Positions 50,498-62,010 of a DNA stretch of 64,000 nt are shown here, piece by piece. Position 1 is the stretch's first letter. Each line of letters begins with the position of its first letter. Source of the DNA: Klebsiella phage vB_KpnM_KB57; the sequence record NC_028659.1; one strand, written 5' to 3'. The translations under genes were made by a program, and so were the position numbers. Below the pieces are notes generated by a model. The model was not told the origin of the DNA, ran no database searches, and saw only the letters and a program-made list of their open reading frames with translations.

Positions 50498-50617
50498 ATG
50501 GACGACACGGGTTTCTTATTACTGGGGATGCTGATTACAGCGTTCCTGATCCTTATCCCTTACGGGATGATGTTGTACGTATCTATTGGGCCAGTGGCTA
50601 AGAAGGACGATTGTTGA
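50498..50617 (+). CDS. Small hydrophobic peptide (39 aa, MDDTGFLLLGMLITAFLILIPYGMMLYVSIG...)
   Basis: Good promoter and RBS. Single TM helix. Confidence 0.35.
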   Translation: MDDTGFLLLGMLITAFLILIPYGMMLYVSIGPVAKKDDC

Positions 50618-50645
50618 GACTGCTATGCGGCTGACCACACAAAAG

Positions 50646-50674
50646 GGTTGACGTAAACTGTCAGCCCTGTTATG
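50646..50674 (+). promoter_or_regulatory. Orphan sigma70-like promoter TTGACG-N17-TATGCT with no ORF downstream
   Basis: Consensus-like hexamers. Next >1.7 kb is non-coding. Confidence 0.45.
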
Positions 50675-50902
50675 CTTTATGTAAGCCACATCTCCTGAAG
50701 CTGGAGGATACAATCACCACTCCTGCGTGAAAGGTTGTACATCCTGTTAACACACAATCTGAAGTGACTTACCGATATGTCGATAAAGCACCCTTTCATA
50801 AACACATTGCCGTAACGTGTCGATGCCATAAGCATGTCTGAAGTGGCCTCCGTTTTCTCCACATAACCACCCCCGCCCCCGTGGGGAAATCAAAACATGC
50901 CC

Positions 50903-50932
50903 CTGCCGAAAATATCACTTGCCGAAAATATC
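50903..50932. repeat. Tandem direct repeat CTGCCGAAAATATC x2 (third partial copy CTTGCCGAAAC at 51081-51091)
   Basis: Seen directly in the sequence. Confidence 0.6.
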
Positions 50933-51796
50933 TGTCTGGGTGTTTTGGAGCATTCGTACTGTCTGAGGTGCTAGACGGACAGCTCCGGGCGTCAACTATC
51001 TTTACGGATCTTTACAAAATATCATGGGCAAGGTCGATCCGGTCCCCGGTTCCTCGGGGCCTCTTCAGGAATGAAAGTTACTTGCCGAAACTAATAATAA
51101 TCAAATGTGACAGATAGCAAGCATATGGTTTGCCAGCTTAGAGCACGATTTGCTATTGACTTGTTTATATTTGTGTGAATTACGCCATTTAACATAAAAC
51201 ACGTTATACGCACTAGCTAACAACACATAGCAAGCTAATAATGCCCCAGTGTTACCAGTGTGACGCATAGGCCAGTCGCTTCAGGTCATTACATGGTGTG
51301 ACTGTTACTGTGGTGATAGTTTCATGTGTGATTATTCATGTTTTAGGGTTGTTTTGTGAATGAGACGACGAATGAGAATCATTACTATTTCGATTTCGAA
51401 TTCAATTTCGAAATGAGAATCATTCCGCAAATATAAATATTTTGTAAATTTATAAATAAAAGCTTGACAAGAGAAGAGAATCGTGTTTAGCAATACATAC
51501 TCTTTGAGCATCATTATCATTTGCGACTAATTCCCATCAACCCCGTTACGGACCGGATACCCGGCAATGCTAAAGCATTGAAATAGTTACAATAAGTAAC
51601 TATTTTCTTTATTGCTACGCAAGGGATTGATAGATATTTTCGATAATAAAAACACTTGACAGTTTACACTTCTTCCATGCTCAAAATCAGGCCTTTCCAT
51701 AGGCCATAGGCCCACATTAGCAAGTGATTTATTGCTATTTGTCAATCATTAAATTTCATTTAATCACATAATAATAACGGGTTGTTACCATCACCA

Positions 51797-52000
51797 GCGA
51801 CACAATAACACGGGAGCGATCACGCAGGGCGTGATCGGTGTTATCGTGGCGATGTGATAAAATAAGTTTGCTAATCATTACGGATGTAATGATCTTAATG
51901 ATAACAATTTTCATTCGCTCTTAGGCGTCTACGAGCCACGATAACGCGAACGAAAATGATAAGTATTATCATTTGAGTTACTCCCGTGTTATTGTGTCGC
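51797..52000. repeat. Perfect 20-bp inverted repeat (GCGACACAATAACACGGGAG / CTCCCGTGTTATTGTGTCGC) flanking 164 bp that contains two perfect hairpins (CGATCACGCaggGCGTGATCG, ATCATTACggaGTAATGAT)
   Basis: Seen directly. Flanked by direct repeats CACGAT(A/T)ACGCGAACGA (51937, 52023) and TGATAA(A/G)(A)GT(A)TTATCATTTGAG (51957, 52101). Confidence 0.65.
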
Positions 52001-52373
52001 TCGCTACGCTCGCGCCACTCCCCACGATTACGCGAACGATTTTTATTTGACAAGATTTTATTTTTATGCTCAATAAAACCAGTTCACACAATAGGTTAGA
52101 TGATAAAAGTTATCATTTGAGAGTGATTCTCACAGTATGCATACATAATGCTTAAAAATGCATGTTTTATTCAGTTAATAACATGCGTTATTAATTGTTG
52201 GGGTTGTTAGGTAGGGCCATACCCTTTTAAGCGCAATATGCGCCATTCTGAGAGGCTTTATCTCTTACCCTGGCTAGTGGGTTACCGCCTGGAGATCTCG
52301 ATTATGCAGGTTTTAGTCACCTATCACTTTTTGATTATTGATTGATAAAACCTAAAGTATAAAAACACAAAAG

Positions 52374-52400
52374 CCGGGAGTTACCCGGCATTATTTTTGG
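52374..52400. terminator. Bidirectional terminator hairpin GCCGGGAGTTACCCGGC with flanking T/A runs
   Basis: Sits at the boundary between the non-coding region and the minus-strand small-gene block. Confidence 0.5.
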
Positions 52401-52414
52401 GGAGTGGTGGAACC

Positions 52415-52678
52415 TTACAGCGCGATTGCCAGCAGGCCAGCGACCACGAAAGGGAGATCATAACGATCTAAACGCTTAAAGCGATTAAGTTTAATCAGGG
52501 TGTAAAACGTTAATTGTAAAACATCGATCATGGTGTTAAACCCTTGCGCCGTTGTTTCCGTCGTTACCAGGCCGACAAGGCAGTTAAAACACGTATTAGA
52601 CACTAAAGCAATAAGGCAAGCCAGCAGGGTAGCGCGTAAAATGCTTGTTTTGCTTACAGTGTAAATCATGTTTGTCAT
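52415..52678 (-). CDS. Small membrane protein (87 aa, 2-3 TM)
   Basis: Hydrophobic segments. Last gene of the leftward block. Confidence 0.5.
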   Translation of the reverse strand: MTNMIYTVSKTSILRATLLACLIALVSNTCFNCLVGLVTTETTAQGFNTMIDVLQLTFYTLIKLNRFKRLDRYDLPFVVAGLLAIAL

Positions 52679-52831
52679 TTGGTGTTACTCGTTTAATGAA
52701 GGAGATAGAAGAATAACAGACGAAAAAGGGCGCTGCAATAGCGCCCCGATGTTATTTTGCTAATTAAGCTAATTCAATCTCAAATAAAACGCCCATATAG
52801 CGATCATCACCTGAAAGCGTAGTAACAATTT

Positions 52832-53044
52832 TCATACATTCTTCAAAGGTCCAAGCCATTGTAGACCCCTGGCGAACATAAGACACATAACCGGTTTTTG
52901 AAGTGCTTTTGATATTGTAGCGGATATTTGACATTTATTTACCTTCGGTTTTGCGGGTTGGTTATCTTCCCGCTCTGAAATAAATAATAGTCGAAAACAT
53001 CTGGCGAGGCAAGCGTTTTGCCTTTTCTTTACAACCTCATTCAC
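52832..53044 (-). CDS. Hypothetical protein (70 aa)
   Basis: ORF in the cassette array. Confidence 0.45.
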   Translation of the reverse strand: MNEVVKKRQNACLARCFRLLFISEREDNQPAKPKVNKCQISATISKALQKPVMCLMFARGLQWLGPLKNV

Positions 53045-53249
53045 TGATTAGTTTAAATTCCGCCTCAGGGTGATAAAGATCAGCCATATAGCGAGTTTTG
53101 TAATAGAAAGATACTTCCACAATGTGAGGCGCTTCGATTTCTATTTGTGTGATGAGGACGCTACCCGGCTTAAAGCCTGGTGCAATGTCCGGTAACTCAA
53201 TGACCATTCCGCCTTTTAATTCCTTCGCTTTTACAGTTCTCATGATCAT
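53037..53249 (-). CDS. Hypothetical protein (70 aa)
   Basis: Overlap coupling. Confidence 0.45.
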   Translation of the reverse strand: MIMRTVKAKELKGGMVIELPDIAPGFKPGSVLITQIEIEAPHIVEVSFYYKTRYMADLYHPEAEFKLISE

Positions 53250-53479
53250 TAACCTTTTTTGCGTTTAATTACTTTTATTACTTTAAGGCCCTTTTGTTCT
53301 AAAAACTCCGGGCGGCGCAATTGTGCGGCGCTGCTACGGCTTTTCACCTTGTTAGACAACACGCCATAATAGCTACCGTCCTCATACTGCCCGATGAAAT
53401 AAAAATCATTTACGCCATATTTCTCATCTCCTGCCTTCTGGATGATTTCGGCTAACTTGTCAACACTAATATTAATCAT
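53249..53479 (-). CDS. Hypothetical protein (76 aa)
   Basis: Preceded by hairpin GGGGCGCTAGCGCCCC and GAGGTAAAG RBS. Confidence 0.5.
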   Translation of the reverse strand: MINISVDKLAEIIQKAGDEKYGVNDFYFIGQYEDGSYYGVLSNKVKSRSSAAQLRRPEFLEQKGLKVIKVIKRKKG

Positions 53480-53526
53480 AATTGCTTTACCTCAAAGGAT
53501 AACGGGGCGCTAGCGCCCCGGTTTGA

Positions 53527-53856
53527 TTATTTGTTAAGCTCTTTATATTCAGCGATCCAGCGGGTAAAAATCTTATGTTGCTTTTCTGCCGCCGCTTTTG
53601 TTCTATGTGAGATAGCGGTGATATACCAACAATCCGCAAGGCACCAACCGGAAGAATGAAAAATCCAAGGATAATTTGAATCCGCCGCTTTAAGTTTCAC
53701 GATCTTCTCTTCTGGCTCGCTATGTGTGAAGGCCTCGATCTCGTTTGCTGTATACTGGCGATCCTGTCGCTTGATTCGATTTCCAATATGATCGAAAGTG
53801 TAGTTGTGTGATTCTAGATGATTATCCAGCATTTTAAAGAATTCTGATTTAGTCAT
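53527..53856 (-). CDS. Hypothetical protein (109 aa)
   Basis: RBS AGAGGTAAAAAAC before the ATG. Confidence 0.5.
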   Translation of the reverse strand: MTKSEFFKMLDNHLESHNYTFDHIGNRIKRQDRQYTANEIEAFTHSEPEEKIVKLKAADSNYPWIFHSSGWCLADCWYITAISHRTKAAAEKQHKIFTRWIAEYKELNK

Positions 53857-53931
53857 TGTTTTTTACCTCTTTTGATTGTTGGTGATAACTTATCAAAAGG
53901 CGCTCATCTAAACGCCTTTTAATCTGTTAAC

Positions 53932-54291
53932 TTAGTTGCTTTCTGTAACGTCTACCCAAAGAGCTAAATCAATAACGCCTTTTTCTTTAATCTTTTGCAG
54001 GAGGCGATCAGCGCGATCAGAGCTATTGATATAATAATCAAAATCTTGTCCGGTCTCTTCGTCTGTCAGTGATTCAATTCTACCGATAATCACACGATCA
54101 AGAGCATAAGTTTTGTTAGTGTACCAGTTAGTGAGACGAATTTCACATTTGTAATCGTCGCTCGGGCCGTCCAGGGTAACGACGTCGATTAAATCGCCTT
54201 TGAAAACTGACAGTGACCACATCGGATCATGATCTACTACGCCGCCAAAATCTTTACCTTTAACAGTAGAATTCAGATTGATGATAGTCAT
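53932..54291 (-). CDS. Hypothetical protein (119 aa)
   Basis: RBS GAGGTAAAC. Own promoter upstream. Confidence 0.5.
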   Translation of the reverse strand: MTIINLNSTVKGKDFGGVVDHDPMWSLSVFKGDLIDVVTLDGPSDDYKCEIRLTNWYTNKTYALDRVIIGRIESLTDEETGQDFDYYINSSDRADRLLQKIKEKGVIDLALWVDVTESN

Positions 54292-54340
54292 TTTCGTTTA
54301 CCTCGTTAAGTTGTTTTCGTTTGTTTGCCCTACGAGATAA

Positions 54341-54369
54341 ATAATAATATAAGCGGGGATCGCTGTCAA
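54341..54369 (-). promoter_or_regulatory. sigma70-like promoter TTGACA-N17-TATTAT for the 53932-54291 gene
   Basis: Reverse complement reads TTGACAgcgatccccgcttatatTATTAT. Confidence 0.55.
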
Positions 54370-54737
54370 TAGCTCTTTACGTATCTTTACATTATTCACT
54401 TTTTGCATCTTTATGCATCGCTATGCAATTGATTTCATGGTGAAATTACTTTTTAGCTGTTTTCCCGTGTCAAGTTGTTTTTATATGGCCTTTAAACGTC
54501 CTGTAACGAGTTTTAAGCGGTTTTTCGTCCAGGCTGTACCCTAGTCCATTTTATCGGAGATCTCGCCATATTCACTATTTTGCATAAGATTTTAGGCGTT
54601 GTTGAGAGTAATTCTCATTACCGGAATAGCGGGCACCTCCGGTGACTTTCCTCCGGTGTCCATCGTTGCCGCTTCAAACAAAGAATAGCAAAAACCAGGA
54701 CCGAAAGCAAGCCCTGGAATTGTAAAGATTTTACCTA

Positions 54738-55205
54738 TCATGCCAGGCCGGATCTCTTCGCCTTTGCAATGTCGGAATATAATTTTCTAAAGTATGCCGG
54801 GCCTCGCTCGTTTACTCTTACATATTCATCACGCGCCGCCACCTGGAGATCGTCGGGTAATAATCCATGATAACCACTGTTAACAATAGCGATCCGTTTT
54901 TTGTTGCAATCATAGTAGACATATGATCCATCGGCTAGATAAATTGTGCAATTCTGCCGGATGTAGGGGATCAAATAAGCCTCGCCCTGGTGCCGGATTT
55001 TGTAAAGCGCCATTTGTCCATTGTAGATCCGGCGGACGTGATAGGGGTCATTAATTGCCCGGTGAATGTTTTCCTTCCAGGCGTTGCGAGCGTTGCCAAC
55101 ATTACGGATCAGCGCTTCCACCTCGGGGATCACCACGTTAGCGCGGGCGGCGGCTTTTGCCTGGTCTGATAATTCATCGTAATAAAACATTCGTACACTA
55201 ATCAT
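54738..55205 (-). CDS. Hypothetical protein (155 aa)
   Basis: ORF. A 31-nt repeated element lies in its upstream region. Confidence 0.5.
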   Translation of the reverse strand: MISVRMFYYDELSDQAKAAARANVVIPEVEALIRNVGNARNAWKENIHRAINDPYHVRRIYNGQMALYKIRHQGEAYLIPYIRQNCTIYLADGSYVYYDCNKKRIAIVNSGYHGLLPDDLQVAARDEYVRVNERGPAYFRKLYSDIAKAKRSGLA

Positions 55206-55346
55206 TTTTGATTCCTATAAACGGAAAATGTGGGAGGTCGGCGGGGCGAAGGTGCTGACTTCGAACCCACTCGCCAGACATGAGGACCAGGACACGGGAA
55301 CCCCGCCAGCGGTATCGATTCCCGTTTAAAACGTTGACGTAAATGA

Positions 55347-55574
55347 TCATGCGCCGTAAAGGCCATCACCATCAAAATCATCCTGAAAAAATGACAGATA
55401 TTCGAAAAACTCGAATTCCATCGCTACCGTATGTTTTACCAGATCGGTGTTTGCATATTCAGCGGGTGATAACCGGATCGGCGCGTCACTATATAGGTCA
55501 GTAAGTTCGATGTATTCACCGACTTTTTGAGCGGTCACCGTGTTTTTCTTGTTGTTAAAAATTACTGTTTTCAT
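55347..55574 (-). CDS. Hypothetical protein (75 aa)
   Basis: Preceded by the conserved hairpin + AAGGTAAACC. Confidence 0.5.
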   Translation of the reverse strand: MKTVIFNNKKNTVTAQKVGEYIELTDLYSDAPIRLSPAEYANTDLVKHTVAMEFEFFEYLSFFQDDFDGDGLYGA

Positions 55575-55627
55575 GGTTTACCTTCCAGGTTATGCCGGGG
55601 ACGTTCCCCGGCTTGTCGGCGAGTGTA

Positions 55628-55888
55628 TTAGAGCGCTTTTTCGATATCACTTAAAATCTTTTTGGCCAGGTCATAGCCTACATTCAGATCCCGCGTGATA
55701 TCCTCGGCTAACAGTTTACGGCCTACGTTGCCGAAACTTAGCATTCTTTTAACTTCCGGTAAACACTTACCCCAATAATTATAACAGGAGTTACCGATAT
55801 ATTTTGAATAAAACGCGTTATCGTTGCGAACTCCACCCAAAACAGCGACATTAACAGAGATAACGTGTTTAAAATTGTGCTTTTCCAT
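55628..55888 (-). CDS. Hypothetical protein (86 aa)
   Basis: Preceded by GGCCGGGGAATACCTCCCCGGC hairpin + AAAAGGTAAACC. Confidence 0.5.
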   Translation of the reverse strand: MEKHNFKHVISVNVAVLGGVRNDNAFYSKYIGNSCYNYWGKCLPEVKRMLSFGNVGRKLLAEDITRDLNVGYDLAKKILSDIEKAL

Positions 55889-55985
55889 TTTGGTTTACCT
55901 TTTCGGCTTGCCGGGGAGGTATTCCCCGGCCTCAAAAAGATATTAACCGATCCGCGACTGGCTTGCAAGCGTTTTTATTTAATAA

Positions 55986-56218
55986 TTACGCCCACGTTTT
56001 AGCATAAGAAAACAGGTCAGAGACATAGCCGCGATAGCCGCCGGGGCGTTTTGCCTTTGCGTTGCGATACCATGCGACAATTACAGATCCGCCGCTTGTC
56101 ACGCCACCAAAAAACCTTTCATCTCCGCTTCGCCAGCTTCCACCCATTGCCCACGCTGTAAAGTTTTAGGATCTACGTTGTCGGCCAAAATGTTAACAGT
56201 TTTTTGATATTTAGCCAT
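55986..56218 (-). pseudogene. Possible frameshifted small gene. A 39-aa ORF (MAKYQKTVNILADNVDPKTLQRGQWVEAGEAEMKGFLVA) continues in another frame after a T6/A6 run.
   Basis: Two consecutive protein-like frames joined at GAAAGGTTTTTTGGTGG. Neither is in the supplied >=60-aa track. Confidence 0.3.
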
Positions 56219-56234
56219 CTTTTATTTACCCCAA

Positions 56235-56558
56235 TTAGTTAGCACGGAAAACATCGTTAACAATAGCCGTTGTAAACATCCAGACTAGATCCGGGGTAGT
56301 TATAGGCAGGCTGTCAGCCTGTTTTATTGTTACTCCGCTTCTTTCAAGCGTGTAGGCGATAAAATGACGGTTTTCAAGTTTCCCGCTATGGGATTGAATG
56401 GATTTTTCAGTGCGGATCAGGACAGTTAAACGGTCAGTTTGTTCGCTGTCATTCTCATGACAAAATACTAACATGGTTTTTTCACCCTGGCGATTAAAGT
56501 CGCAATTAACATTATCGTTAACATTTTCCAGAAAGAAAAATTTGTTTGCCTTTTCCAT
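56235..56558 (-). CDS. Hypothetical protein (107 aa)
   Basis: RBS AAAAAGGTAAAATAG before the ATG. Confidence 0.5.
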   Translation of the reverse strand: MEKANKFFFLENVNDNVNCDFNRQGEKTMLVFCHENDSEQTDRLTVLIRTEKSIQSHSGKLENRHFIAYTLERSGVTIKQADSLPITTPDLVWMFTTAIVNDVFRAN

Positions 56559-56629
56559 ACTATTTTACCTTTTTGTTAGTGGGCCAATCTTGCCCGGTCC
56601 AAGTAATATAACCTAACCGGGCCGGGGGA

Positions 56630-56833
56630 TCAATGATTATTTTCGCTTTCCGGCATCGGTTCGACTTCCGGCGATGGTATGCAGGCCGGATTAATCCAGC
56701 GCCCCTGGCGCTGATAGTCGACGGCGACGATCTCGCAAGTCAATTGATCATCATAGCTTTCTACTACATAATCATCACACTGTTTTAAAGCCAGCGCACC
56801 ATAAAAGCACATACCCGCGAATACTTCAAACAT
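56630..56833 (-). CDS. Hypothetical protein (67 aa)
   Basis: ORF. Confidence 0.45.
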   Translation of the reverse strand: MFEVFAGMCFYGALALKQCDDYVVESYDDQLTCEIVAVDYQRQGRWINPACIPSPEVEPMPESENNH

Positions 56834-56843
56834 GATCGTTACC

Positions 56844-57086
56844 TTACTTTTTGAGGGTGAGAATAGGGCGCTTATCGCCTTCTTTAACGCCGGGGTCTAA
56901 CTCATCGCAGATCCCGATCTGCTCGCCTTTGCCTAACGTGTATTCGTTTTCGTACACGTTGCAAGCCTGTTCCGTGGGGAATGTTTTTTTAACATTCCAA
57001 TCACATTGTAATGCCATCGAACTAACAGAAATATGACAAGCCAATATAATAAATCCAAACATGGTAGCCGCCTTAATGGGGCGCAA
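56844..57086 (-). CDS. Small secreted Cys-containing protein (80 aa) with signal peptide
   Basis: MRPIKAATMFGFIILACHISVSSMA signal-like N-terminus. Preceded by hairpin GGGGCCTTGCGCCCC. Confidence 0.5.
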   Translation of the reverse strand: MRPIKAATMFGFIILACHISVSSMALQCDWNVKKTFPTEQACNVYENEYTLGKGEQIGICDELDPGVKEGDKRPILTLKK

Positions 57087-57100
57087 GGCCCCGCTATTGA

Positions 57101-57460
57101 TTATTTGTTGATCTGGTTTGTCTGATTATAGATCCCATATTGAACACGGGACACGGTAACAGATTGAGGGAGTAAGCAACGAACACGATCCGCGCGGTTG
57201 TCATATTTTTTGATATGCGCCGGAGTATTGTTGCGGGTAAACTTCACGCGTAAACGTAATTTATTGGGATCGCGATCATCGATTCCGGTTACCACGCCAA
57301 AAGCGATTTGACCATAGTTATGATACACCATTTTACCCAGGAATTTTGATTCAAGATCGGCGATGTTAGATTTTACGTTTTGCATGTTATTTACCTTTTG
57401 GTTATTTGTTTCACTTGTCAATGTCTGGGAATTGTAAGCCCAGACATTAACCAGTGTCAA
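57101..57460 (-). CDS. Hypothetical protein (119 aa)
   Basis: Preceded by a 10-bp perfect hairpin AATGTCTGGG/CCCAGACATT and AAAAGGTAAATAAC. Confidence 0.5.
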   Translation of the reverse strand: MTLVNVWAYNSQTLTSETNNQKVNNMQNVKSNIADLESKFLGKMVYHNYGQIAFGVVTGIDDRDPNKLRLRVKFTRNNTPAHIKKYDNRADRVRCLLPQSVTVSRVQYGIYNQTNQINK

Positions 57461-57463
57461 CTG

Positions 57464-57715
57464 TTATTTTACGCGTTTAACCAATTCCCAGACACTGGCC
57501 GCCTCTTTACTGTTAAAGTATTGATCCCACCAAGAAAAATCATTAACAGCAAGAGCATATTTTTCGGCGCTTTCTGCCGTGTTAAAAACTTCGGGTGAGT
57601 ACCTGCAATTACCTTTTTCATCCGTGATCAACACGTCATAAGTTCCGTCCCCAAAATCCGAGGAGATATCACGAATAACGATACCAGGTTTTTTGATTTC
57701 ATTTACAATTGTCAT
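57464..57715 (-). CDS. Hypothetical protein (83 aa)
   Basis: Preceded by GGCGGGAATAGGTCCCGCC hairpin and GGAAGGTAAAG. Confidence 0.5.
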   Translation of the reverse strand: MTIVNEIKKPGIVIRDISSDFGDGTYDVLITDEKGNCRYSPEVFNTAESAEKYALAVNDFSWWDQYFNSKEAASVWELVKRVK

Positions 57716-57803
57716 ATCTTTACCTTCCAGCTAGTGGCGGGACCTATTCCCGCCTTATTGAGAATAATAGGCCTTTTTGTCAACAATTAAAGACAAAATT
57801 TTT

Positions 57804-57962
57804 CTAGTTCTGACTCACGAAAAAGGAAATTATCCAGCCCTTTGCCACATTTGAGCACTCAAAAATCCATTTACCATTTGAATCTTTCCAAGCGCGATTA
57901 ATCCCAACATAACAACAAAATTCAGAACTATAGGCCGTTTTATACATGTTTTGCTTTTCCAT
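57804..57962 (-). CDS. Hypothetical protein (~52 aa from the internal Met; 65 aa if from 58001)
   Basis: Hairpin GTGGCGGAATTCACCGCCAC + AAAAAGGTAAAC precedes the internal ATG. Confidence 0.4.
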   Translation of the reverse strand: MEKQNMYKTAYSSEFCCYVGINRAWKDSNGKWIFECSNVAKGWIISFFVSQN

Positions 57963-58264
57963 AGTGTTTACCTTTTTCAGTGTGGCGGTGAATTCCGCCA
58001 CTGATTAAAGGATAGCATAACGCCGCCAGGATGCAACAAATATTTTTAAGAATTGTTGAGAACTGTTCTCATATGCAGTGATGTGCATAGAAAATCGCTG
58101 TTATGCAATTAGTTTCAACCGGTAACTAAATTTGTGGCGTTTTTAGCGGGGCGCGGTTATCGGATACCATCTAAAACGCCCTCAAATCGATTCTAAGCGC
58201 TTCAATGTGTAACCCTGGTAAGTGCATTGCTGCGCTGAGATCTCGCCATATTCACTATTTTGCA

Positions 58265-58294
58265 TAAAAAAGCCGGGGAATTATCCCCGGCCTG
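58265..58294 (-). terminator. Rho-independent terminator GCCGGGGATAATTCCCCGGC + TTTTTT (minus sense)
   Basis: Perfect stem and T6 immediately after the stop of the 58296-58511 gene. Confidence 0.65.
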
Positions 58295-58295
58295 G

Positions 58296-58511
58296 TTATT
58301 CACCTGCTACGGCGTATCGCTGCAAATTACGTTTACGATCCGCAAGGCGTTTATTCAACTTCGGATCATACTGGTCCGGCGACCATTGAACCGCGATCCG
58401 TTCCGGCTTATGCCGTTTGTTGTTACGCTCGCGCCGTTCATTAGTCTCACCAAAAGCAAGGCGATCGCGCTGGCTTGTCATCTTCTCAAAGTTGCGGCTT
58501 TTTGCTGTCAT
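58296..58511 (-). CDS. Small highly basic protein (71 aa)
   Basis: Arg/Lys-rich (ERRERNNKRHKPER). Confidence 0.45.
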   Translation of the reverse strand: MTAKSRNFEKMTSQRDRLAFGETNERRERNNKRHKPERIAVQWSPDQYDPKLNKRLADRKRNLQRYAVAGE

Positions 58512-58848
58512 ATCTTGATCCCCTGTGGTTGTATGTTTCCGCTCGCCATTCCGCGATCTGTTTTTTGCGATATTCGATCAGCTCTTCGATGTAGTCGAAG
58601 GATCCCTCTTTATGTACCAGGACCACGCCGCCCCGGTGTTTAATCTCACAAATCAGGCCGCTACCCTCCAAATCATTTAACGGCCCGGATCGCCTGGTGT
58701 GGTACTCCTCCCCCTGGAAGCGATATTCTATATAGTGGAACATTGTTTTAACCCTGTACCAGTAGTAAAACCATTTTACAACACGCCAGATCCTGGCGTG
58801 AATTTTTGCATAATAACAAAATATGAGTAGAATCAAAAATTCTTTCAT
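58486..58848 (-). CDS. Hypothetical protein with N-terminal hydrophobic segment (120 aa)
   Basis: ORF. Confidence 0.45.
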   Translation of the reverse strand: MKEFLILLIFCYYAKIHARIWRVVKWFYYWYRVKTMFHYIEYRFQGEEYHTRRSGPLNDLEGSGLICEIKHRGGVVLVHKEGSFDYIEELIEYRKKQIAEWRAETYNHRGSRYDSKKPQL

Positions 58849-58849
58849 A

Positions 58850-59245
58850 TTACGCGGCGCTGTTTTTAAATGGCTTATCCCACGATCCGAACTGTAGATC
58901 GATATAGTGACCTACATTAAAATAGTCTGTCATGATGTCGCTTCTATCATAATTATCAGTGTTTAGCGCGTTGATGATTTTTTCAAGCGTTGCGGTGAAC
59001 TCTTTATCACTCGAATAAGTATGAGCATGATAATGGTTAATATTGATATATGTAAAGCCGTCCGGGTATCCTTCTTTAACTGATTTATGATCCATTTTAG
59101 ACACAAGATCAAACGGCCCGGATCGGATAGTGCAAACAATAGTTGAATAGTGACGGATCGCAAATGTTGCTTTCCAACCTTTTGGCAATACAGCTTTTAC
59201 CGCTTCGACAATTTTCGCTTTCTTCTCTTTATTCATGTAGGCCAT
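58850..59245 (-). CDS. Hypothetical protein (131 aa)
   Basis: Preceded by AAGCCGGGGAATTGTCCCCGGC hairpin + AAAAGGTAAACAAA. Confidence 0.5.
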   Translation of the reverse strand: MAYMNKEKKAKIVEAVKAVLPKGWKATFAIRHYSTIVCTIRSGPFDLVSKMDHKSVKEGYPDGFTYININHYHAHTYSSDKEFTATLEKIINALNTDNYDRSDIMTDYFNVGHYIDLQFGSWDKPFKNSAA

Positions 59246-59304
59246 TTTGTTTACCTTTTAGGTTATGCCGGGGACAATTCCCCGGCTTTAATCAGTATAG
59301 CGGT

Positions 59305-59817
59305 TTAAAGAATCTTTGCAACGTCTTTATAAGACCATGCAAAAAGAGAATTTTGTTTACCTGGTGCAACTTCCGCCAGACGTCCAGCAAATCGGGCGCG
59401 GTTATGCGGGAACTCAAAGACTACCACGCGCCCGGATATCATTTCCACGCGATCACCATTTTTCAGGATCTTGATCCGATCAATCAATGCTTTTTGCTCT
59501 TTTTTGTATTTAGCATGTTGACGGCAAGCGGCGCGCCAATTAACGGAAAATTCATCTTTTTGCATGGATCGCTTAAGGAATTTTTCAGGACAGTTGTAAT
59601 AACACGGGCCGCAAGATTCATCCATGTCTTTATAAAAAACCATACCATCTTTACGGGAAAGAATTGTAACACGAATGTAAAGACTTTCATCTTTCGCCCT
59701 TGCAAGCTGATAAACTTCATTGCCTACAATAGAAGTTTCGATCACGCGGTTATCAGTCAGATAATTTTCAACAAATTTTTTGTTATTAAGATTAGAATAA
59801 ATGCCAGTCCAGCCCAT
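59305..59817 (-). CDS. Hypothetical protein (170 aa) with CGPCYYNC motif
   Basis: ORF. Confidence 0.5.
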   Translation of the reverse strand: MGWTGIYSNLNNKKFVENYLTDNRVIETSIVGNEVYQLARAKDESLYIRVTILSRKDGMVFYKDMDESCGPCYYNCPEKFLKRSMQKDEFSVNWRAACRQHAKYKKEQKALIDRIKILKNGDRVEMISGRVVVFEFPHNRARFAGRLAEVAPGKQNSLFAWSYKDVAKIL

Positions 59818-59886
59818 GATATTTTACCTCGTTTAGTGTTTAGTTTGTTGGTGCCTGGTAATTATAGGCCCTTTCCGGGCCTGGTG

Positions 59887-60672
59887 TCAAATGATACGTT
59901 CGAATTTATCGAATCTTTTTGCGGATCTGCCGTGAACGTCGATCACGACGTTGGCGCGTTTACCATCGCATAAGCCGCAATCTAAGCAGCTAATATTGTG
60001 AGTGGTATTAACGCAAGTGATCTCCCCTTCCAGGCGTCGCATGTTGGGAGTTTTCACGCGAAAAGTTTTATAACCCTTGCGCCATGCTGTGATCGCTTGC
60101 TTTTCCGTATCAGCGGAGATCTGGCAAATGGTAGCGATCCGATGGTCAAAATTTTTATGGTGGATCTGGTGAGTGTACCCCGTGTTACCTTGCGTATGGT
60201 TGATCATGTTTTGCCATACCTCAAAAGGGACCGCCGCCGGATCACCGTAGGAACCTAAACGGATATAACGCCCCGCAAAATGTACCAGATCGCGAGAATC
60301 AAGATCTTTATAGTTGCCTTTTTTGTAAGACTTCCAGACTGACAGTGGGGCCTGGTGTAACGTCACATAACAAGCGCCGTTTAAGCTGGTACGATGGGGA
60401 CACATACCGCAAACGGATGAATCAAGTTTTTTCGCGCTTGCTTCCAGTGGGCTAACATCTTCTCGCATGATCCAGGTTTGAACCATGTCGCCTGTTTTAT
60501 CGTTAGCGGTTGACATTGTAGCAATGACCACGATCGGGGCCTTATCCAGAACTGACGGGCCTTTATATAATACATAACCCTTTTTTGCTGTGGATTTTTT
60601 ACCCGGTACACTATGCACGATCTCGGATTCTGAGTTGACAACCAGACCATTATTAAGTTTAAACGTAGACAT
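59887..60672 (-). CDS. Hypothetical Cys-rich protein (261 aa). CGMCPHR ... CLDCGLCDG motifs.
   Basis: Largest ORF of the block. Two Cys clusters suggest metal binding. Confidence 0.5.
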   Translation of the reverse strand: MSTFKLNNGLVVNSESEIVHSVPGKKSTAKKGYVLYKGPSVLDKAPIVVIATMSTANDKTGDMVQTWIMREDVSPLEASAKKLDSSVCGMCPHRTSLNGACYVTLHQAPLSVWKSYKKGNYKDLDSRDLVHFAGRYIRLGSYGDPAAVPFEVWQNMINHTQGNTGYTHQIHHKNFDHRIATICQISADTEKQAITAWRKGYKTFRVKTPNMRRLEGEITCVNTTHNISCLDCGLCDGKRANVVIDVHGRSAKRFDKFERII

Positions 60673-60765
60673 TGCTTTTTACCTCGATTTATCGCGGCCC
60701 TTGCCGCCTGAGAAAACACTTTATCAAAGGCGCTAACTGAAAGCAAGCGCCCAGGATAAAATATT

Positions 60766-60933
60766 TTATTTAGCCAGGGATAAGGTTTTGCCGTGGTTGA
60801 TCCCAGGGATAACCCATTGCCCGGCGCCATCTTTAACAGGTTGACGTAAACGCGCCGCCGTGGTTACCTTGCTGTTAACATTACGGGCAAAAGCGCGGGC
60901 CTGGTCACGGGTAGTAAAAGAAATGTTTTTCAT
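60766..60933 (-). CDS. Small hypothetical protein (55 aa)
   Basis: RBS GAAGAGG. Not in the supplied track. Replaces the spurious overlapping 60381-60830 ORF. Confidence 0.35.
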   Translation of the reverse strand: MKNISFTTRDQARAFARNVNSKVTTAARLRQPVKDGAGQWVIPGINHGKTLSLAK

Positions 60934-61219
60934 GTTGTAGCCTCTTCAGTAGTGTAATTTTGTTTTGCCCTGGATTTTGGAGATCCTCACCTTTCCGGGC
61001 CAGATTGAATCCTCATCACTTGCGCTTTACTCCACGCCCCACTATTTCAACCGGGGGCCTTGGATTCACCCCGCCCCGGTGAGATGAATATTAAGTGATA
61101 GCGATCCCCGCGTCAATCCCCTGGATGAAAATAAATTAAAAATATTTTGTTCGTGTGGGCTTGCGCCCCGGCCTGGTTAGTATACTATATAAGAACGCCC
61201 ACAAATAAAGGTAAACGAA

Positions 61220-61405
61220 ATGGAAAACGGAAAAGTGATAACGAGTGAAACAATGGTTACCCTTTCCACCTGGGAAACGGAAAGCGCAGCGCCCCAGGTT
61301 AGGATCGTGCCTTTACCCTTCGCGTTGAAAATGTATAATGCAGGATTTACCAGGGGGAGAATTGTTGCGGAAAATGGAGAAGTGATCGCGGACTCCTGGG
61401 AGTAA
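61220..61405 (+). CDS. Hypothetical protein (61 aa), plus strand, with the same AAAGGTAAAC RBS as the minus-strand block
   Basis: ATAAAGGTAAACGAAATGG precedes the start. Upstream TATACTAT -10-like element. Confidence 0.45.
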   Translation: MENGKVITSETMVTLSTWETESAAPQVRIVPLPFALKMYNAGFTRGRIVAENGEVIADSWE

Positions 61406-61802
61406 AAAATATTTTATCGCGGGGCTTGCAAACGGCCCCGGCCTGGATTATATTTATCAGACAGAAGAGGAAACGCCACCCCACGGCGAAAAGGCGGGGC
61501 TAACATACCAGGCGCGGAGACCTGGTTGGAAGGTGGATCGCTGGTAGCTCGCCTTGAATAGTTTTGTAAAGAATTGTAAAGACGCTTGCAACCTGGGGCC
61601 GTGTATCCTATATTATACACATAGCGGGAACATTGAAACCGGAGTACAAAACACCGGGGGTACCTGTCATTCAGCAAATGAGAATGATTATCATTCAAAT
61701 AACTAAATAAGAATGCTTATCATTCAACAAAAAATTTAAATATTGACTTCTGATTTTTCATGTGAGATACTGAACGATACCCATAAAAAATTTTTTCGCG
61801 TA

Positions 61803-62010
61803 AGAAAACAAATACGATCTGGAAATTGAGATCTCGATCGAGAACCGGGCCGAAAAATTTTTCTAGAGAAAAAACAATTACGATCTCGATTTTGAAAAAC
61901 CGATCGAGAACCCGGTTGATATAGAGAAAAATTTTTTGATAGTGAGAGCAAATACGTTTTTGAAAACGAAAAGTCGATCGAGAACCCAGAGTTTTCTACC
62001 TGAAAATTTG
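61803..62010. repeat. Three ~70-bp degenerate tandem repeats (iteron-like), each ending in (C/T)CGATCGAGAACC(C/G)
   Basis: Core motifs TACGATCT-GA..TT and CGATCGAGAACC recur at 61834, 61900 and 61973. AT-rich flanks. Confidence 0.6.

Follow-up and report, generated by a model that had tools for sequence, protein, structure and literature searches.

Promoter, hairpin and Shine-Dalgarno cassettes as candidate portable expression units in the early small-gene block of a Mydovirus Klebsiella phage

Introduction

Klebsiella phage vB_KpnM_KB57, a Mydovirus (Vequintavirinae, rV5/PVP-SE1 group), carries within the 64-kb window analysed here (the whole stretch of DNA under study) a block of small minus-strand genes at 52415-60933, in which a GC-rich hairpin is repeatedly found just ahead of a Shine-Dalgarno (SD) sequence of the form RAGGTAAA. 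This repeated unit of hairpin plus ribosome binding site (RBS) is real, conserved, and far beyond chance. We propose, with a probability of roughly 0.55, that the block is built of portable early-expression cassettes, each comprising a promoter, a 5'-terminal stabilising stem-loop and a strong SD, and that these cassettes double as recombination joints.

The block contains 24-25 small open reading frames (ORFs) of 39-261 aa, as counted from the ORF list with refinement of the start positions, in keeping with the array of about 23 tiny genes that a preliminary description had recognized on this strand. It is approximately 96% identical to the corresponding DNA of KNP2, BIS47, KpS8 and Proteus phage Mydo, with coverage that is mosaic (59-94% in 3-8 pieces); the replication genes next to it are collinear with those of the relatives at 97-99% identity. 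Matches to PHROG families were obtained for 20 of the 21 block ORFs tested, every family being of unknown function, and the sole Pfam assignment among the block ORFs is a T4 Gp30.8-family protein, encoded by the gene with its ATG at 54291. The families of unknown function and the mosaic coverage support the earlier view of an early, accessory, ORFan-rich block, which we regard as the variable, hyperplastic region of Mydovirus, and the suggestion that it constitutes a host-takeover or anti-defence arsenal is a guess. The rV5 genome paper describes the early region of that phage as a stretch of mainly small ORFs and, for signals, lists promoters and terminators only (PMC3606486).

Results

A hairpin next to the ribosome binding site recurs throughout the block

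Nine of the 24 junctions between block genes overlap or span at most 16 nt, and none of these has a hairpin/SD element. Spacers of at least 38 nt number 16; a GC hairpin is present in 15 of them and adopts the hairpin-next-to-RBS layout in 9, and in the remaining long spacers the hairpin is close to the stop codon or within a promoter. The core observation of the preliminary description, a hairpin-SD unit, is thus confirmed, but its extent is not, since the unit had been attributed to almost every spacer. Likewise, GC hairpins are found where they had been placed, but perfect 8-bp GCCGGGGA stems occur only four times in the block (three of them RBS-adjacent, the fourth a true terminator), and the other RBS-adjacent stems have differing sequences of 5-7 bp.

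The 3' end of the hairpin lies 15-23 nt ahead of the ATG in 9 of the 24 block genes, whereas shuffled upstream regions yield 0.14 +/- 0.38 hairpins (maximum 2) at this position; in the plus-strand block, a GC hairpin is so placed in 3 of 61 genes. Because the distance to the ATG is narrow and the distance from the upstream stop codon is wide (6-294 nt across the nine RBS-adjacent units), the hairpin belongs to the downstream gene. A strict scan of the 64 kb for a perfect GC stem, followed by RAGGTAA and a start codon within 9 nt, returned eight units, all on the minus strand of the block and none elsewhere. In these eight units the order of hairpin, SD and ATG holds as previously described, with gaps of 7-9 nt from stem to RAGGTAAA and a further 2-6 nt to the ATG. 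RAGGTAAA occurs 21 times in the window compared to 4.5 expected, and 13 of the 21 are the RBS positions of block genes; one further block start uses a near-variant. The plus-strand replication and metabolism genes (8230-50000), on the other hand, have SD sequences of GGAG, AGGAG or AAGGAG.

The hairpin-RBS family and the CCCCGGCCTGG element were also found independently by a repeat finder. The similarity of about 45 nt that had been noted between the units at 59268 and 55582 was recovered both in this way (families D2 and D8) and by alignment, and the recurrent element CCCCGGCCTGG(T/A)TA is indeed present, at 58284, 61165 and 61435 (family D13). MAFFT alignments of 25 and of 15 hairpin-RBS units returned no structure in RNAalifold, because MAFFT placed length variation at the 5' end and not in the loops, leaving the stems out of register. 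Alignment of the spacers with a covariance model, as proposed in the preliminary description, was replaced by a descriptor scan with shuffles, which does reveal the layout, by orthologue alignments, and by the counting of pairs in one gap-free family. Rfam searches at the gathering score and at E up to 1 identified in the window only tRNAs outside the block; the one match within the block is at chance level (24.5 bits against a gathering score of 88).

Promoter-like sites precede the hairpins

Hairpin-bearing spacers of the block contain σ70-like promoters, about 11-12 per 24 genes, which the preliminary description did not include. In five of the nine RBS-adjacent units a promoter-like site scoring at least 8/12 has 7-10 nt between the end of its -10 hexamer and the first paired base, compared to a background of 3.5% of positions. 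The promoter of a sixth unit (57754) is recognizable in relatives, its spacer having been shortened by 9 nt in this phage. When the early regions of eight Mydovirus, nine Seunavirus and one rV5 locus were pooled, 35 of 114 unique non-terminator GC hairpins (orthologous copies included) were found to have a promoter-like site 7-11 nt upstream, versus a background of 3.1%. These 35 hairpins represent at least 10 different promoter-stem combinations, and the distance from -10 to stem is 9-10 nt in 28 of them; among the 41 pooled hairpins with T-rich, terminator-like tails, none has a promoter site at a stricter threshold. Since transcription usually starts 7 nt after the -10, the predicted starts would place the stem at approximately +2 to +5 of the transcript, behind 1-4 unpaired 5' nucleotides; the pooled range of 7-11 nt would leave 1-5 of them.

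We refer to the arrangement of promoter, hairpin and SD as Type I, the principal kind of cassette; all of its copies are on the minus strand and are given here from promoter to start codon. The cassette at 59243-59321 consists of TTGCAA-16-TATACT (59321-59294), 7 nt, the hairpin GCCGGGGA-attg-TCCCCGGC (59286-59267; fold of -19.8 kcal/mol, z = -5.1), 9 nt, the SD AAGGTAAA (59257-59250) and the ATG at 59245. Its paralogue at 55572-55650 has a weak promoter, GTGATA-17-TACACT (55650-55622), followed by 9 nt, GCCGGGGA-acg-TCCCCGGC (55612-55594), 9 nt, the SD AAGGTAAA (55584-55577) and the ATG at 55574; the L013 orthologue of this unit reads GTGACA-17-TATAAT, 9 nt, hairpin. The most conserved copy, at 55886-55968, is composed of TTGCAA-17-TAATAT (55968-55940), 9 nt, GCCGGGGA-atacc-TCCCCGGC (55930-55910), 8 nt, the SD AAGGTAAA (55901-55894) and the ATG at 55888. 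Between Mydovirus and Seunavirus this copy retains both promoter hexamers, the 8-9 nt that follow the -10, the stem itself and the SD, and it varies in the promoter spacer and the loop (tacc, tgg, gcggt and ttg).

The cassette at 57960-58036 comprises TTGCAT-16-TATCCT (58036-58009), 7 nt, GTGGCGG-aattca-CCGCCAC (58001-57982, z = -3.7), 7 nt, the SD AAGGTAAA (57974-57967) and the ATG at 57962; in Seu621, AV124, VLCpiM5b and P8734 it precedes a different gene (MQNV...). At 52932-53012, TTGCCT-17-TATTAT (53012-52984) is followed by 10 nt, GCGGG-N11-CCCGC (52973-52953), 7 nt, the SD AAGGTAAA (52945-52938) and the ATG at 52934, a cassette kept in eight relatives, one of them a Seunavirus. The sixth copy, at 57713-57783, has a damaged promoter in which TTGACA (57783) and TATTAT are 8 nt apart, ahead of GGCGGGA-atagg-TCCCGCC (57754-57736), the SD AAGGTAAA (57726-57719) and the ATG at 57715. 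Its promoter spacer (57764-57783) bears a 9-nt deletion relative to KpS8 and to the related contig L010, which read TTGACA-17-TATTAT, 9 nt, hairpin; to judge from the sequence, this deletion probably inactivates the promoter in this phage.

Three further minus-strand units have the hairpin and SD without a recognizable promoter. The unit at 60670-60707, which has no convincing promoter, contains GCGGC-aagg-GCCGC (60707-60694), 8 nt, GAGGTAAA (60685-60678) and the ATG at 60672. At 53477-53520, where a promoter is doubtful, CGGGGCG-ctag-CGCCCCG (53520-53503) is followed by 9 nt, GAGGTAAA (53493-53486) and the ATG at 53479, and orthologues keep the stem and have indels in the loop. A paralogue of this spacer (repeat family D10), the weak hairpin unit at 57060-57092, has GGGGC-cttgc-GCCCC (57092-57078) 15 nt before the ATG at 57062 and an SD of AAGGCGG.

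The same layout is seen in the early region of rV5 (L026, 106000-121500), where a promoter, a GC hairpin, a CA-rich leader and an SD precede many small ORFs. The distance from hairpin to SD is longer and variable in rV5, and the SD sequences are AGAGG or AGGAG. This layout supports the link between promoter and hairpin and weakens the case for a special role of the 7-9 nt spacing.

The stems bear the marks of RNA structure

Most of the hairpins have folding energies of -12 to -20 kcal/mol and z values of -2 to -7 against shuffles; two 5-bp hairpins, those at 57092 (z = +0.47) and 60707 (marginal, z = -1.65), are no better than shuffles. In the 57754 stem a compensatory change from A-T to G-C converts GGCGGGA/TCCCGCC to GGCGGGG..CCCCGCC in Mydo, KpS8 and Csp-D17. 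At the first position outside the perfect stems, G.T oppositions on the sense strand outnumber A.C (12 versus 3), and the 5' arms contain 221 G versus 89 C. This excess of G.T over A.C and the G-rich 5' arm, a polarity unexpected of a DNA palindrome, point to selection on the structure as RNA.

Two candidate roles for the stems were discarded. The predicted probability that the region from SD to AUG is unpaired was unchanged by scrambling of the 5' arm or by deletion of the hairpin, and the idea of an SD insulator was dropped since predicted SD accessibility is the same with or without the stem. An antitermination hairpin of the nut/boxB type was rejected because the loops vary between units and orthologues and the aligned cassettes have no shared boxA-like motif.

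A second cassette type and four terminators

At three promoters of the block (59890, 57460 and 56633), which we designate Type II, a GC inverted repeat occupies the spacer between the hexamers or surrounds the -10, and an unstructured leader rich in A and C then leads to a RAGGTAAA SD. The minus-strand cassette at 59815-59890 has a perfect TTGACA-18-TATAAT (59890-59861, 12/12 match) with AGGCCC-ggaaa-GGGCCT (59882-59866) inside the spacer, then the A/C-rich leader, the SD GAGGTAAA (59830-59823) and the ATG at 59817. On the same strand at 57383-57460, TTGACA-18-TACAAT (57460-57431) is combined with a 10-bp inverted repeat (57448-57420, z = -7.1) that has the -10 in its loop, followed by the leader, the SD AAGGTAAA (57397-57390) and the ATG at 57385. 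The third, at 56556-56633 of the minus strand, consists of TTGATC-17-TATATT (56633-56605), GCCCGGT..ACCGGGC (56622-56592, z = -3.05) around the -10, the SD AAGGTAAA (56571-56564) and the ATG at 56558. These hairpins lie 4-15 nt past a stop codon and overlap the next promoter. In the family of the 57460 promoter, nine gap-free variants keep an 11-bp stem, which displays the -10 hexamer in a 7-nt loop, with pairing of 94.7%. Four of the 11 pairs have changed on both sides, compared to none in slid controls, and none of 500 shuffles reached the observed covariation score.

The nine RBS-adjacent hairpins have no T-run, in agreement with the earlier judgement that they are not simple terminators. 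A stem followed by a U-run is found instead at 58293, 53920, 52746 and 52389, so that the hairpins of this kind number four rather than the two previously listed. All four are on the minus strand. The intrinsic terminator at 58266-58293, after the sixth gene, is one of the four GCCGGGGA hairpins and reads AGGCCGGGGA-taat-TCCCCGGCTT followed by TTTTTT. The terminator-like hairpin at 53895-53920 is AAAAGGCG-N10-CGCCTTTT, and a second intrinsic terminator, at 52723-52746, is GGGCGCT-attgc-AGCGCCC followed by TTTTT. The intrinsic terminator closing the block, at 52361-52389, is GCCGGG-taact-CCCGGC followed by TTTTGTGTTTTT, and is also a recombination breakpoint.

Recombination junctions coincide with cassette signals

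A 95-nt cassette at 55881-55979, the most conserved of the Type I copies, is 91-94% identical in PVP-SE1, SSE121, GAP31, LNA4 and EC152, and the flanking genes on both sides are unmatched. At least three different genes (with starts MEKHN, MQNFI and MKIIT) follow it in the alignment. Its 24-nt core was found in six IMG/VR stretches only and had zero matches in bacterial or archaeal genomes.

Comparison with eight Mydovirus relatives shows aligned segments ending repeatedly at the same places in the window. Of 25 breakpoint clusters, 19 fall either in a spacer or no more than 10 nt from the end of a gene, compared to 25% expected (P = 1e-7). The junction at 57399, inside AAAAGGTAAA, marks a two-gene deletion between two RBS copies. 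Junctions at 57461 and 57778 fall directly after GTTGACA, and that at 59885-59892 is at ATTTGACA, after the -35, and is duplicated so as to flank an extra gene in KNP2, Seu621 and VLCpiM5b. The junction at 59860 is directly after a -10, those at 54296 and 56839 are directly after an SD, and that at 54287 follows ATGAC; both 54287 and 54296 lead to different genes. Junctions at 59245 and 57062 are at an ATG, and those at 57101, 56232 and 53031 are directly after a stop codon. Thus, most of the mapped junctions are at a -35, -10, SD, ATG or stop, and few are inside the hairpin. The -35, -10, hairpin and SD motifs recur ahead of unrelated genes, and we suggest that they would provide the micro-homologies through which genes are deleted, inserted or replaced in related phages.

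Other promoters, repeats and genes in and around the block

Two tandem minus-strand promoters without a hairpin are present at 54289-54473, TTGACA-19-TAATTT (54473-54443) and TTGACA-17-TATTAT (54369-54341), followed by a leader, the SD GAGGTAAA (54304-54297) and the ATG at 54291 of the Gp30.8-family gene. The outermost promoter of the block, TTGACG-17-TAATAT at 61088-61116 of the minus strand, lies about 150 nt upstream of the first gene. The divergent small gene at 61220-61405 (plus strand, DUF7170) likewise starts from a AAGGTAAAC RBS (61208-61222).

A perfect 31-nt direct repeat, GAGATCTCGCCATATTCACTATTTTGCATAA, which contains the palindrome GAGATCTC, is found at 54557-54587 and 58237-58267, and each copy, in the minus-strand sense, opens a non-coding spacer of about 300 nt after a gene end or terminator. 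The palindromic AATGAKAATSATT occurs seven times compared to 0.94 expected and is clustered in the non-coding flanks of the block (51371-51521 and 61677-61724), where its copies could be operator or iteron-like sites. CCAGGCC, which contains the Dcm site CCWGG, occurs 14 times compared to 4.7 expected, with four copies directly 5' of GC hairpins (58289, 59878, 61170 and 61440, minus strand). Upstream of the block, at 61787-61989, are three imperfect 63-nt direct repeats (family D1), 70-76% identical and spaced 66-74 nt apart, to which Tandem Repeats Finder gave no score. The region of about 1.9 kb at approximately 50500-52400 is AT-rich, with no convincing ORFs and with many ATGATAA/TCATT-type repeats; it is probably the counterpart of the box that was reported as "non-coding" in rV5, with a possible role as an origin or in regulation.

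The 261-aa Cys-rich protein encoded at 59887-60672 of the minus strand belongs to PHROG 2554, of unknown function, and has homologues of 35-41% identity in Mycobacterium, Gordonia, Ruegeria and Microcystis phages. Neither this protein nor the 170-aa protein has a Pfam match above cut-off or a sequence relative in the PDB, and their PHROGs are all of unknown function; AlphaFold, given the single sequence of the 261-aa protein, produced a model too poor to use (predicted local distance difference test score, pLDDT, of 33.5). At 55986-56218 of the minus strand, overlapping ORFs of 39 and 53 aa resemble one gene split by a frameshift near AAAGGTTTTTTGG, as might result from a sequencing error, from decay to a pseudogene or from programmed slippage.

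Discussion

In the reading that we favour, a host σ70-type promoter would open the Type I cassette in the six copies in which it can be recognized, and three hairpin-SD units join the class without one. A GC stem-loop, rich in G on its 5' arm and in C on its 3' arm, would begin 7-10 nt past the -10 and thereby close to the start of the primary transcript, at about +2 to +5; the SD RAGGTAAA would follow 7-9 nt past the stem, with the ATG 2-6 nt further, providing a strong and unstructured RBS. The 5'-terminal stem-loop would keep RppH, and RNase E acting in its 5'-end-dependent mode, away from the 5' end and would thereby stabilise short early mRNAs, and the four T-run hairpins would split the block into transcription units. 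Secondary structure at the 5' end is known to stabilise E. coli mRNAs, in that RppH and RNase E need single-stranded 5' ends (PMC3997798). Among the functions offered in the preliminary description, that of stability elements is the one that fits best. Its proposal of translational coupling on a polycistronic transcript is at odds with the finding that the hairpin spacers carry their own promoters, and that the genes which are truly coupled, by overlap, have neither a hairpin nor RAGGTAAA.

Several observations weigh against this reading. A number of the promoter calls reach only 8/12, and the units at 60707, 53520 and 57092 (and, weakly, 55612) have no convincing promoter, so that the hairpin there would be internal to a longer transcript. 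The placement of the stem at +2 to +5 derives from promoter consensus alone, the literature having yielded no start sites, 3' ends or half-lives for any Vequintavirinae phage. The pooled promoter counts include orthologous, non-independent copies, and the associated P value is thus indicative only. A 5' end with 3-4 free nucleotides would be shielded from RppH only in part, and shared ancestry may be enough to account for the fixed spacing of 7-9 nt. Finally, selection acting on random illegitimate recombination would leave breakpoints at gene boundaries as well.

The hairpins could instead act on read-through from the upstream gene, as weak attenuators or 3'-end protectors that insulate genes and set mRNA levels, in the manner of the PeSL elements of T4-type phages or of promoter-coupled terminators, their position relative to the downstream gene being incidental. 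The PeSL GGGG..CCCC stem-loops have demonstrated terminator activity (PMC2839356), the Type II hairpins, placed 4-15 nt after a stop codon and overlapping the next promoter, resemble promoter-coupled terminators (bioRxiv 10.64898/2026.08.19.745784), some hairpin units have no promoter, and the GCCGGGGA hairpin at 58293 is a genuine terminator. The RBS-adjacent hairpins, however, have no T-runs, and their position is fixed to the -10 and the SD rather than to the stop codon, from which they lie 6-294 nt away. Furthermore, they are downstream of their own promoter and, at +2 to +25, efficient termination would abort the transcripts of that promoter, which makes them unlikely terminators. We consider this explanation possible but unlikely. 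A role in translation, with the hairpin-SD unit acting as a standby site or insulator, or as an operator for a phage regulator or nuclease that separates early mRNAs (with the AAGGUAAA SD) from middle and late ones (GGAG), would account for the tight 7-9 nt between stem and SD and for an SD type specific to the block (RAGGTAAA, versus GGAG/AGGAG in the replication block). T4 RegB and RegA are precedents for such SD-directed control of early mRNAs. This role appears distinctly unlikely, given that predicted SD accessibility is the same for native, scrambled-arm and deleted hairpins, that the differing loops and stems offer no common protein-recognition sequence, and that the rV5 hairpins have variable spacing and other SDs.

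The clustering of junctions at cassettes raises the question of whether the GC palindromes act as DNA, either as recombinase or nuclease recognition sites or cruciforms that mobilise the cassettes, or as a promoter structure that displays the -10 in a loop. The authors of the PeSL work speculated on a protein targeting the GGGG..CCCC stem (PMC2839356), and the covarying Type II stem does put the -10 in a 7-nt loop. Yet the junctions are mostly at the -35, -10, SD, ATG and stop and not in the hairpin, the sense-strand G.U wobbles and G-rich 5' arms point to RNA, and the stem sequences are diverse, leaving a DNA-level function improbable. Still less probable, and indeed highly so, is a single long polycistronic early transcript cut by RNase III, an option also raised in the preliminary description. 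Hairpins do recur between early genes, and the early mRNAs of T7 are a precedent for processing of this kind, but the stems, at 5-10 bp, fall far short of the two or so helical turns that the enzyme needs, and a duplex of about 20 bp with an internal loop is absent; moreover, most of the long spacers hold promoters, and four internal terminators break up the block. A more elaborate form of the cassette model, in which the promoter-hairpin-SD units mark a class of early mRNAs for a phage factor (for selective protection, translation or later shut-off), or are actively mobilised like the PeSL mini-circles, which arise by recombination between flanking elements and are encapsidated, or both, strikes us as rather unlikely. 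As a mark of this kind, the AAGGUAAA SD together with a 5' stem would set early messages apart from the GGAG-type middle and late ones. The Srd-like protein reported for rV5 is a candidate lead for such a factor; no Srd-like gene was found when ten flanking ORFs of the window were scanned against Pfam.

The cassettes as we interpret them, with promoter, 5'-terminal stem-loop and SD in one portable unit, are most readily compared with the PeSL of T4-type phages (PMC2839356, PMC4122927). Both combine a σ70-like early promoter with an adjacent GGGG..CCCC stem-loop, both are repeated in hyperplastic, ORFan-rich regions, and in both the insertion, deletion and replacement junctions of close relatives lie in the elements. 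In PeSL, however, the stem-loop is upstream of the promoter and is an effective terminator, whereas Type I has the order promoter, stem-loop, SD and no T-run, and in Type II the stem overlaps the promoter rather than lying upstream of it. Additionally, a fixed RAGGTAAA SD belongs to the unit described here, and its carriers are Vequintavirinae rather than T4-like phages. Because the order of the parts, the likely role of the stem and the built-in SD differ, we have not classified these cassettes as PeSL. With the 5'-terminal stabilisers of ompA, papA and the T7 gene 10 leader (Emory, Bouvet and Belasco 1992, cited in PMC3997798) they would share a stable hairpin a few nucleotides from the 5' end, together with an unstructured leader and a strong SD, but the 5' ends are here predicted and the stabilisation is a proposal, and the element is repeated many times and travels with promoter and SD. 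Promoter-coupled terminators (bioRxiv 10.64898/2026.08.19.745784) resemble Type II in that tandem genes are separated by little DNA and the stem-loop between them overlaps the promoter of the second gene; the T-tract that they have just upstream of the -10 is absent from Type II, in which the stem encloses the -10 or fills the spacer. The RNase III sites of T7 and the repetitive extragenic palindromic (REP)-type intercistronic stabilisers are likewise hairpins between genes of an early or multi-gene region, but the stems described here are far shorter than RNase III substrates and are tied to promoters and SDs, not to 3' ends.

The searchable literature yielded no prior description of these elements, and no transcript maps, for Vequintavirinae. 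The cassettes are a tidy variation on a known phage design rather than a new kind of system, and are only moderately surprising. They provide a testable map of early transcription for the rV5/PVP-SE1 therapeutic phages, with about 12 promoters, 4 terminators and 9 leader hairpins in 8.5 kb. Since a promoter, a putative stabiliser and an RBS are united in about 80 nt, the cassettes are also ready-made parts for expression in Enterobacteriaceae and for phage engineering. The idea of mobile regulatory cassettes is hereby extended from T4-type phages to a second subfamily, with a different order of elements, which suggests that large lytic phages have, in the recycling of short expression signals, a general means of shuffling their accessory genes.

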